A stretch of 64,000 nucleotides of DNA from an uncultured Candidatus Peribacteria bacterium (GTDB lineage: Bacteria; Patescibacteriota; Gracilibacteria; Absconditabacterales; Absconditicoccaceae): contig CAYXZL010000003.1 in the NCBI GenBank assembly GCA_964469925.1, forward strand, positions 40,448 to 104,447. Reading direction: 5' to 3'. Both the position numbers and the translations under genes were made by a program. This document shows positions 61,265 to 64,000 of the stretch, piece by piece. Within the stretch, counting starts at the first letter, position 1. Every line of letters starts with the position of its first letter. Under the pieces are notes generated by a model that worked only from the letters and a program-made list of their open reading frames with translations, did no database searches and was not told the DNA's origin.

Positions 61265-64000
61265 TTAGTTTCTTGGATTATTGAGGGCATGGTAGTAATT
61301 AACAATATCGCGAACCTCCTCACGAATAGCGACAGAACGAACTCGATCATCAAGCTCTTTACCTGTAGAAGCTGGATTAGGCCTGGGGATGAGTTCAAAG
61401 CTTTTTTGGGTCATGCGGTCACGACCAAAGGGATAGCAGGTTGTGGCACGCCTTGCAAAAGTAATTCAGGGACGAAATGCAGGTCAATCTTGAGGTCTTA
61501 CAGGATTGATAGTACCAAACATGAGATCAGTAAATCAGCTAGCACTAAATGACATGAGAACAGGAGCGGCAGAGTCTCAGCTATGGATACAGGTATCAAG
61601 GAGGAGGGTCGGCTCACCAGCATTGAGATAGAGATTTTTATACCTTGTTTGAAACTCAGTCTGGATGTCCTCAAAGCTTTCTGGCAACGAAAAAGGATCG
61701 CAGGCATTTCCTTTTCTGTTTTGCTCATCAATAATATATCTCGCCTCCTCTTCATCGTACATTTCTTTTGACTTAAATCCCATAGGATTAACAAAATAGA
61801 TTTTAGGCCTTTGTGCTCTGGGCCGCCCTTCCAAGTTCCAGTACCTCATAAGACCCAGTGCCATTGGCCTCATAGAGCGATCAAACAAAACAAGGTTCTT
61901 AATGCCATGAGTCCTAATATAGTCTGAGACACTCACGATGTGTCCATACAGCTCAGCCCTTGCCATCTCAGTGTCGAAGATGTCGTATTGTCTACCATTG
62001 CTATCAGTGTCTGTCTTGCCACAATATCACTCTCTGATCAGCCACGATGCTTGCTCAATCGTCAATCAACCATCAATCAAGATACGCATTTTTCTTGCTA
62101 ACTGCTCAGGTGTATAATTGTAAAGCTTAGCAGGTGTGCCATCTTTACCTTTCTCTCCACTACCAACTTGATGGGCGACCTCAATGAGTTCTTGAAGGGC
62201 AATATCGCTGATGTCGGGGGTCTGTCTGTTGGAAAATTGTTCTTTGAAAGGAGCAACTTTTTGACTCTTATCCAGCTTACTATTGGCTTGTTTACGGATA
62301 CGTTCAGTTTCGATACTATCATCTTCAAGGTCACGTTGAATAACGTCGAGTGCGAGATCTTCTGATACAAGATCTTTTCATCATCTGATAGCAGCATCAG
62401 CTCTTATATCGATACCTGCACCAAGCGATTCACGTAAACGTCTTTTCAGAGACTCTAATGATTTGCCCGTACCAATCGTGTCGTCAATGAGGGTAATATG
62501 AGAAACGCCACGCAAAAATTCGGCAGGAGTTTGAGATGGCGAGATTGCTGTGTAGGAAATCGTCCCATCAGCTTGTCTCTCAAGCACCCATCCATGGTAA
62601 TTGCTATTGGGGTCGCCGTTTTGGTGTGGATCGAGAAAAAACACTTTGTCACCAGTCTTTTTGAGAGATGCTCTCGCACTTTCCATCATAAGGAGCCCAG
62701 CATACAGCATAACGACTGGCGTCCTACCATCTTTGCGACAACGGTCGAAGATGAGTGTTCCCCTCATGTTAAACAGGTCAAATCACTGTCTACTCACTTG
62801 TGCGGCTTTGGCAGCATTGATAGTTCTAGTAGGATCATTGACCGCCTCCAGTGCATTCGTCACAGCAGCTTGATAGTCTGCCTGATCCGTAGCTGTTTTG
62901 TCAGATGATTGGAAAGTTAGATAGGCATCGATGACAGCGTCTTGCTGTGGACCAGCATCAGTATACTTGCAAGCGAAGTAGAATCATAAGTCACCAAACT
63001 TTGGATGAAGAAGATCTGTAATCTCGCTCTTCCCAAACTGAGCTTGTCTGTGTTGAAGTGCATCTAAAGAGCTAGGTGGAAGGAGTGTGGGAATCGACTG
63101 CTCTGGAAGTGTAAAAGCAGAGACAAGAGCGTTTATCGTGTTGATCAGACGCTGTCTGATGGCCCAATCAGTAGGATCCATGTTTTCTATGAGTCAGTTG
63201 TAGATGGAGAGGAGTGTGCTTGCACGTTTTTGCAACTTCTCGAGTTCTCATTTATTTTTAAGGAGTTCTAGTGCTCATCATCATGACGCTCTGGAGGTAG
63301 TCATGGCAGTAAGTGCTATGGTTTCTAAATAATCATCAACTGTGTTGATCTGAAAAACCGTCTGGAAGGTTTGGTTGATGCCAAGGTGCGTAAGATCCAT
63401 GATCCCATTAGTCAAGAGCTCTTCACTAATTTCTCCTACCACTTCGTAACCAAACCTTTTGACAATCTCACGTTTGGTCATATCTCCCAAATATTTGCTC
63501 ATGTATCAGCCAGAGAGTTTTTCTCAGACTAGGCTTTCTACGACACCATCGACGCTACTAGCAAAAAAGGCATATTCTGCAGCTCAAGCTCACGTTAGTC
63601 CGCTATTGATAGCAAGTGTAAGGTTGTCGTCTAAGCGACCAAAATAGGCCCATCACAGCTTCCCAAGTACATCAGAACTAGGGGGTATATACTCCGCAAC
63701 GACACCAGCACGGACCAAGAGTGATTCAGCCTGTTCGGAGAGGAACCTAGCTCCTGTCCTCATGAGGAGAAAGTCAGTGTAGGCACTTTCTGTTTTATAA
63801 AAAAGTGATCAGATGTTCCAACTCCCGTCAGGGTTGACAAGAGGGGTAGAGGCCATGACTGATGCTGGCGTGGTAATAATGCCAGTAGTCTTACTAAACA
63901 GATTTCCTTTGTTCCAATCATCAATCATCTGAGCTTCATATTTATCGTCTGATAGCCATTTTGCCCCAGCAACACTCAAGTCATAGGGAGATTTGAGTGT
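61265..64000 (-). CDS. giant hypothetical protein with two PRTase-like modules; N-terminus beyond the right edge (more than 911 aa visible)
   Basis: Fragments 63281, 62984, 62381 and 61577 share one frame, open to position 64000. TAA at 61265-61267. HITLIDDTIGTGKSL and TLLLDTCIHSGDS resemble type-I phosphoribosyltransferase PRPP loops. Confidence 0.7.

Follow-up and report, generated by a model that had tools for sequence, protein, structure and literature searches.

A mosaic giant protein with two phosphoribosyltransferase-fold modules from a Gracilibacteria-type bacterium that reads TGA as glycine

INTRODUCTION

Enzymes of the phosphoribosyltransferase (PRTase) fold have been described in several systems outside nucleotide salvage. 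Depletion of phosphoribosyl pyrophosphate (PRPP) is a demonstrated mechanism of the PRTase effectors of type III-A retrons (PMC12746101). In Bcs3 of H. influenzae, the PRPP-dependent ribofuranosyl transferase CriT has the usual DD motif replaced by D680 (loop 1) and E818 (loop 3), and a HAD phosphatase (CrpP) then strips the 5-phosphate (PMC10299916). PRTase domains are also found in very large polyvalent proteins of phages and plasmids (Iyer et al. 2017, PMC5512222). Here we describe P0001, a gene whose 3′ part lies at the end of a 64,000-nucleotide stretch of DNA (the window, C3:40448-104447) in a 24-contig, 1.17-Mb assembly of a genome that is 96% complete. The original prediction, made from the letters of the window, proposed a giant open reading frame (ORF) with two tandem PRTase-like modules and considered the PRTase fold atypical in very large proteins, for which the polyvalent proteins in fact provide a precedent.

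We find that P0001 is a mosaic protein of five parts, in the order of an N-terminal body of ~950 aa, module 1, an acidic spacer, a junction domain of ~70 aa and module 2 (Table 1), and that both modules have the PRTase fold.

RESULTS

P0001 is a complete gene with in-frame TGA codons

With translation table 11, the region 61265-64000 of the window is broken up and contains no ORF longer than 130 aa. With TGA as a sense codon, the longest open frames of the window go from 272 to 1,779 codons, and under table 25 the minus-strand frame at 61265..64000 runs open over 911 codons as far as the window edge, as had been predicted. Beyond the edge, the same frame runs for 675 further codons on the assembly contig until an ATG is reached, and P0001 is a complete gene of 1,586 codons (C3:101712-106472), 34 of them TGA. 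An upstream TAA or TAG, which would have left an ordinary stand-alone gene for the PRTase-like part, was looked for in the full gene and neither codon was found in frame.

The reading of TGA as Gly is shown directly at P0001 itself, because TGA is the codon for G1483, the Gly of the HSG loop in module 2 (ctt gat acc tgt atc cat agc TGA gac), and the HSG-turn position is Gly in 99% of 121 module 2 homologues. The host is a Gracilibacteria-type bacterium reading TGA as Gly. Moreover, the sister species carries an orthologue, P0007, of 1,570 aa with 79% identity over the full length, and this retention of the whole frame in identical synteny marks P0001 as a real gene. Identity between the two species is 93% in the junction domain, the best-conserved segment of P0001, and 73-84% elsewhere, with 84% in the part of the N-terminal body that lies inside the window (residues 676-969).

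Public protein sets render both P0001 and its sister orthologue with Trp at TGA. The same translation was observed in public collections for P0004, P0005, P0015, P0068 and P0158-P0160, where ~2% of residues are wrong, including conserved glycines of the catalytic loops; Trp at these positions hinders homology detection.

Table 1. Features of P0001 and of two upstream genes. Positions without a prefix are those of the window.
Feature	Position	Strand	Description
3′ part of P0001	61265..64000	-	2,736 nt; stop codon and residues 676-1586
5′ part of P0001	C3:104448-106472		675 codons, outside the window
Orphan N-terminal body, part in the window	63119..64000	-	Residues 676-969; Gly/Ala/Ser/Thr-rich
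Module 1, N-terminal helical subdomain	62729..63118	-	Residues 970-1099; motifs LPxSVRxAL, YGxLGxYxxxK, KxAQVSRxGF
Module 1, PRTase core	62378..62728	-	About residues 1100-1216; AF2 and Foldseek
Module 1, PRPP loop ITLIDDTIGTGKS	62459..62497	-	Residues 1177-1189; canonical
Acidic/charged spacer	62216..62377	-	Residues 1217-1270; from sequence composition; 74% identity between species
Junction domain	62006..62215	-	About residues 1271-1340; consensus AHxVGxGExGKDG...YNYTxxQLxxKMxIL...G(L/F)TxEQxxxLxxxGxCG
Module 2	61268..62011	-	Residues 1339-1586; motifs DRSxRP / FxNPxGF / FDTCIHSGxT / CYPFG
Module 2, strand beta-1 and loop LVLFDRSMRP	61865..61894	-	Residues 1378-1387; PPi-loop position
Module 2, PRPP-loop equivalent LLLDTCIHSGDSAA	61565..61606	-	Residues 1474-1487
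P0002	L001:9574-10569 = C3:106573-107568	-	331 aa; stand-alone module 1 paralogue, just outside the window
P0003	L001:11077-14235 = C3:108076-111234	-	1,052-aa orphan

Both modules have the PRTase fold

The PRPP-loop-like strings that had drawn attention to this ORF are present as HITLIDDTIGTGKSLESL at residues 1176-1193 and as NLVLFDRSMRPMALGL at residues 1377-1392, followed by TLLLDTCIHSGDSAAPV at residues 1473-1489. In module 1, ITLIDDTIGTGKS fits the motif of type I PRTases, i.e. a hydrophobic run, an acidic pair and [ST]-G-x-[ST], with the reading DD-x3-TGKS, and its D, D and T are invariant in a 12-sequence family alignment. The AlphaFold2 (AF2) model built from these 12 sequences, with a predicted local distance difference test score (pLDDT) of 86.3, has a helical subdomain of ~130 residues followed by a PRTase core, and all 50 matches listed in a Foldseek search against the PDB are PRTases, the best being XPRT 6w1i (E 1e-3). 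The 12-sequence profile gave nothing significant against the PDB. A pentatricopeptide (PPR) identity, proposed by a 4-sequence module 1 profile against the PDB at E 1e-16, was rejected as spurious, since this value sums about ten insignificant repeats on one 28-residue stretch.

For module 2, the AF2 model (pLDDT 93.1, predicted TM-score 0.90) has the secondary-structure order of a type I PRTase, with a strand at model residues 39-43 followed by a loop at the DRSMRP position. For this model, the Foldseek matches in the PDB are headed by a polysaccharide ribofuranosyl transferase, 7shg (E 1.3e-4, TMq 0.47), with HGPRTs next, and 49 of the top 50 are PRTase-fold enzymes. A profile of the module 2 family gave ten matches in the PDB, all of them PRTase-fold proteins and all aligned on the PRPP loop, with 1vdm as the best (E 0.0018). 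AF2 with Foldseek and the profile comparison with the PDB thus bear out the proposal of two PRTase-fold modules in one large gene, and we hold these structural statements on P0001 with high confidence.

Hidden Markov model (HMM) and structure searches for the fold had been called for together, and the fold was recovered by AF2, Foldseek and the profile against the PDB, whereas the Pfam threshold was not reached. The lone Pfam match of P0001, to PRTase-CE (PF24390), covers residues 1117-1201 and is sub-threshold (E 0.009 and 16.4 bits, for a cut-off of 27), and PRTase-CE scores overall lie at 16.4-17.7 bits. In PADLOC, PRTase_III-A matches over 30 residues below threshold (E 0.022), confined to the PRPP loop. 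PF00156 does not match P0001, and relatives reach only E 0.006-0.06 with 13-16 bits against a gathering cut-off of 26.3; NCBIfam gave no match to P0001, and none of the curated salvage models of NCBIfam and Pfam is reached. When compared with this superfamily, the salvage PRTases, the retron PRTase-CE effectors, the polymorphic toxins and the polyvalent proteins, P0001 belongs only to the PRTase fold superfamily.

A tandem duplication as the source of modules 1 and 2 was considered and rejected, as phmmer detects no relation between them and hhalign aligns only the PRPP loops, with a probability of 12%. From these alignments we treat the two modules as separate families of one superfamily and not as recent duplicates. 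A divergent PRPP synthetase, an enzyme with two PRTase-like halves, was also rejected, as a six-frame search of the genome with PF13793 misses P0001.

The module 1 family is small, with about 12 known members, namely P0002, P0006, P0015, the stand-alone Gracilibacteria proteins of L004 and L007, and P0158-P0164. The homologues P0158-P0164, which stand alone, and the upstream paralogue P0002 also have the helical subdomain. In genome G156, a stand-alone module 1 homologue (L007:2352-3413, minus strand) adjoins purH (AICAR transformylase / IMP cyclohydrolase), a single case that may be due to chance.

Module 2 defines a family with an altered active site

In an exhaustive phmmer search of 1.84 billion representatives, module 2 gave 485 proteins at E<=1e-3, and 235 of these reach E<=1e-10. 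Nearly all of these match module 2, and they are mostly stand-alone proteins of 230-350 aa that are 'hypothetical' or nameless at the source. Within the phylum the family occurs in 8 of 401 genomes. A stand-alone family gene, P0009, on a contig of JGI sample 3300056388, was seen in a ribosomal-protein operon between L5 and S8, in the usual slot of S14.

The loop of module 2, LLLDTCIHSGDS, has just one acidic residue, so the type I PRPP-loop motif is matched in part, and the replacement of the acidic pair by DT had been read as possible degeneration. An alignment of 121 sequences does not bear this out, as the family consensus is DRSARP ... FxNPxGF ... FDTCIHSGxT ... CYPFG, in which D44, R48, D139 and H143 (alignment numbering) are invariant and C141, G145, C192, P194, F195 and R230 are conserved in at least 90% of sequences. 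In P0001 numbering, D1382, R1386, D1477 and H1481 are the invariant residues, C1479 is conserved in 98% and G1483 in 99%, and P0001 keeps every invariant and every >=90% conserved residue. Because the substitutions are family-wide and invariant, the alignment indicates that module 2 has a different active site rather than a decayed one.

In the alignment to 1vdm, D1477 corresponds to the first Asp of the DD pair, T1478 to the second, and H1481 to the Asp of SDTGKT, a position that we take to be that of the catalytic Asp137 of human HGPRT (VEDIIDTGKT). Two members of the module 2 family, P0083 and P0132, are fused to S6PP/Cof-type HAD phosphatases in opposite domain orders. Given these fusions and a putative split of the acids between D1382 and D1477 like that of CriT, we infer by analogy that the module 2 family may transfer phosphoribosyl groups to non-nucleobase acceptors.

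A junction domain links the modules, and P0001 is a mosaic of cassettes

The region between the modules was described in the original prediction as a charged linker. This holds for the acidic spacer, which does separate the modules, but the region also contains a conserved domain of ~70 aa, the junction domain. No Pfam match was found for this domain, which occurs in 33 of 401 genomes of the class (27 of 230 genera), mostly within ORFs of 1,000-2,700 aa and of differing content.

P0015 (L019:10001-15607) is a protein of 1,868 aa from another organism with TGA as Gly, and along it come, in order, a junction domain, module 1, the spacer, a second junction domain and an unrelated C-terminus. Its module 1 has 44% identity with that of P0001 (E 3.7e-33), and the spacer/junction region is also shared. 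Since both termini of the two proteins are unrelated and only module 1 and the spacer/junction region are in common, this comparison argues that P0001 is a mosaic of shuffled cassettes. By eye, the last ~300 aa of P0015 show an R...STT...QxE-like pattern that recalls ADP-ribosyltransferases, but Pfam and a PDB sequence search gave no support, and this identity is no more than a lead. The gene downstream of P0015 has no relation to module 1 or P0002.

Further giant proteins of Gracilibacteria (L005, L006, L008, L009, L010 and L061-L066) were observed to contain the junction domain once or twice each, with two copies in L006. The rest of these giants shows kinase-like and HD-like stretches by eye and one cNMP-binding domain in Pfam, and Pfam scans of four other giant proteins with the junction domain are almost empty.

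For the N-terminal body, homologues were found in none of 141 genomes of the family, and in a set of 5.8 billion clusters only the sister-species orthologue was found. By these searches the body is restricted to the genus. P0001 has one moderately hydrophobic segment, at residues 659-677, just outside the window edge.

The paralogue P0002 and the neighbourhood of P0001

P0002, which lies about 100 nt upstream of P0001 on the same strand, is a paralogue of module 1 over its full length (30% identity, E 2e-33) and the only other member of the module 1 and module 2 families in the genome. Its PRPP loop, LIDDTHNPANPAF, has the pattern DDTxNPxNPxF, in which the TGxT phosphate-binding turn is lost. 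The altered loop is conserved, since the sister species has the same gene, P0006, with the loop LIDDTKNPDNPSF. From this sequence pattern, P0002 may be a non-catalytic partner of P0001.

Further upstream are P0003, a TrmB regulator and a methyltransferase. P0003 has no match in Pfam, NCBIfam, PADLOC or PHROGs, and the sister species lacks it at the syntenic locus, which holds a thioredoxin gene instead. Downstream of P0001 are ATP-citrate lyase genes and a PGAM-type phosphatase. The comparison of the neighbourhood with relatives, suggested at the outset, showed housekeeping synteny with the P0002 counterpart kept in the sister species, while defence neighbours did not appear: by library scans and synteny, no reverse transcriptase, defence, mobile-element or phage-like gene lies beside P0001.

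The genome lacks recognisable genes for PRPP supply and salvage

In a six-frame search, the N-domain of PRPP synthetase (Pribosyltran_N, PF13793; prs) was absent from the genome, and UPRTase (PF14681) gave no match either; all 14 control genomes were positive. The single PF00156 (Pribosyltran) match of the genome is ComFC-like (C1:129580-130362). The absence of prs is probably real, because relatives have the gene in a patchy way (16 of 41) and closed genomes from the family also lack it. Nucleotide salvage, which had been named as a role for such domains in this group of bacteria, is weakened by these findings.

DISCUSSION

A possible role directed at other cells

In the reading that we rank first, though with low confidence, P0001 is possibly a host- or competitor-directed enzyme that uses PRPP. 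Both modules would bind PRPP or a 5-phosphoribosyl nucleotide. Module 2 would probably work like the PRPP-dependent ribofuranosyl (phosphoribosyl) transferases, with its acid pair split between D1382 in the loop after beta-1 and D1477 in the PRPP loop, and the invariant H1481 may act as a general base toward a non-nucleobase acceptor, since it occupies the position of the catalytic Asp of HGPRT. P0001 would then act on the PRPP or nucleotide pool, or on targets, of another cell, either through PRPP depletion, for which the retron effectors give a precedent, or through phosphoribosylation. P0002, as a putative non-catalytic partner of module 1, would keep module 1 inactive or serve as its chaperone. 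Action on another cell is favoured because the genome lacks PRPP synthetase and because P0001 belongs to a class of cassette-shuffled giants typical of episymbiotic or predatory bacteria.

In its fullest form, which we regard as unlikely, this reading would have an episymbiont or predator that cannot make PRPP deliver P0001 into its partner, where the modules drain PRPP or phosphoribosylate a target. The junction domain with its 'GxCG' end would be a boundary for cassette exchange, and perhaps for release, in giant effectors, and P0002 would protect the producer by pairing with module 1.

Several observations weigh against a role directed at other cells. Residues 1-950 of P0001, in which N-terminal domains were to be identified, match no domain in Pfam, NCBIfam or PADLOC, and no secretion, trafficking or pre-toxin domain was recognised there, PHROGs included; by sequence analysis P0001 has no signal peptide and only the one moderately hydrophobic segment. 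There is no immunity gene downstream, the next gene being a subunit of ATP-citrate lyase, and cassette swapping on the P0001 carrier was not observed, as the two known orthologues share the C-terminus. The locus lies among housekeeping genes in conserved synteny, and stand-alone members of both module families are scattered in ordinary chromosomal contexts, which fits a housekeeping enzyme equally well. The fold matches are modest, with TM-scores of 0.3-0.5, and 7shg leads the HGPRTs by no more than a narrow margin. Moreover, prs is present in some genomes that carry the module families and missing from others (5 of 10), so that the absence of prs proves little.

Alternative explanations

A first alternative is biosynthesis in the producing cell, in which module 2, and perhaps module 1, would move a 5-phosphoribosyl group from PRPP to a glycan of the envelope, to a lipid carrier or to some small metabolite, and the N-terminal body would be a scaffold or a membrane-associated anchor. 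The polysaccharide ribofuranosyl transferase as top fold match, the family members fused to HAD phosphatases, the ordinary chromosomal settings of the stand-alone members and the conserved housekeeping synteny of the locus are all consistent with this explanation. However, PRPP synthetase was not detected in the genome, P0001 has no HAD phosphatase domain, no glycan-synthesis genes adjoin it, and it has no convincing transmembrane segment; we rank such a role second and judge it rather unlikely.

Divergent nucleobase salvage, in which P0001 would serve as one or two enzymes that make nucleoside monophosphates from scavenged bases and would replace the missing canonical APRT, HGPRT and UPRT, appears improbable. 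A genome without a canonical salvage PRTase, the textbook PRPP loop of module 1 and fold matches to purine PRTases would suit it, but there is no PRPP synthetase to provide the co-substrate, and no salvage model of Pfam or NCBIfam is reached. Module 2 has His in place of the catalytic Asp of HGPRT and two extra conserved Cys, and placement within an orphan protein of 1,586 aa would be left unexplained. Furthermore, the rarity of both families (8 of 401 genomes for module 2, about 12 members for module 1) argues against a general solution among Candidate Phyla Radiation (CPR) bacteria.

PRTase folds have also been reused as ligand sensors and nucleic-acid-associated domains, as is well established and also discussed in PMC5512222. 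The modules could be without catalytic activity and could sense nucleotides or PRPP, or bind nucleic acids, in the manner of PurR, PyrR and ComFC, and so regulate or target the rest of the protein. The loss of the TGxT phosphate-binding turn in P0002 points in this direction, whereas module 1 retains the full catalytic DD...TGKS loop, module 2 retains all polar residues that are invariant in its family (D, R, D, H and two Cys), and no output domain is recognised by Pfam in the rest of P0001, which makes this explanation quite improbable.

An anti-phage effector, a role brought up in the original prediction, whether of the retron type or another PRTase type, or a phage or plasmid polyvalent protein is very improbable, since, against the known presence of PRTase domains in polyvalent proteins and the weak PRTase-CE (E 0.009) and PADLOC PRTase_III-A (E 0.022) matches at the PRPP loop, both of these matches are sub-threshold, no reverse transcriptase, other defence or mobile-element gene lies nearby, and a phage or plasmid origin was rejected after PHROGs, tblastn against 50,697 phage records and a viral fold search (BFVD) were all negative.

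If the role directed at other cells is true, it would provide a working hypothesis for three undescribed sequence families, namely a PRTase-fold family of at least 485 cluster representatives with an invariant D/R/D/H site and a Cys conserved in 98%, a small family that combines a helical subdomain with a PRTase core, and the junction domain of giant Gracilibacteria proteins. PRPP-directed chemistry would then be a tool of episymbiotic or predatory CPR bacteria, whose means of host interaction are largely unknown. Should P0001 instead be an enzyme of its own cell, the module 2 family would remain a candidate for a new class among the PRPP-dependent transferases.

Comparison with known systems

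Both modules have the core fold of the type I PRTases (HGPRT, XPRT and APRT; PF00156 superfamily), in which the beta-sheet is parallel, the PPi loop follows beta-1 and the PRPP loop follows beta-3, and module 1 likewise has the canonical acidic pair and the TGKS turn. In contrast to these enzymes, module 1 adds a helical subdomain of ~130 aa with its own invariant motif KxAQVSRxG. In module 2 the loop has only one Asp, an invariant His stands where HGPRT has Asp137, two Cys are conserved, and there are a helical insertion of ~50 aa and a long helix at the C-terminus. Moreover, no Pfam model is reached, and both modules lie inside a protein of 1,586 aa.

Among the ribofuranosyl transferases (7shg of Thermobacillus composti and CriT), 7shg is the best structural match to module 2, whose D1382 and D1477 would, on the model, be placed like D680 and E818 of CriT, and the module 2 family also has HAD phosphatase fusions (P0083, P0132). 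The TM-score is nevertheless ~0.47, the family profile against the PDB shows no sequence-level similarity of these enzymes to module 2, and P0001 and its neighbours have neither a HAD phosphatase nor a capsule or glycan gene context.

The type III-A retron effectors (PF24390; PADLOC PRTase_III-A; Retron-Eco11) likewise use the PRTase fold outside nucleotide biosynthesis, and module 1 is weakly similar to them at the loop; P0001 differs in scoring below the cut-off, in having no reverse transcriptase or non-coding RNA partner, and in its chromosomal housekeeping context. Polyvalent proteins are, like P0001, very large and carry several enzymatic domains including a PRTase, and solo relatives of their PRTases exist, but P0001 lacks a phage or plasmid setting and has neither MuF nor LPD domains, PHROGs gave no match, its lineage is Gracilibacteria and its junction domain is new. 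With polymorphic toxins (Zhang et al. 2012, PMC3482391), P0001 shares the feature that the modules past a short junction domain differ at deeper divergence (P0001, P0015 and L005/L008/L009), which recalls pre-toxin junctions. Unlike these toxins, it has no recognised trafficking domain and no downstream immunity gene, and no close relative with the same N-terminus and another C-terminus was found (one orthologue in 5.8 billion clusters, none in 141 genomes of the family).

By the features tested, P0001 falls outside the salvage PRTases, the retron PRTase-CE effectors, the polymorphic toxins and the polyvalent proteins, and its two module families and its junction domain are previously undescribed.

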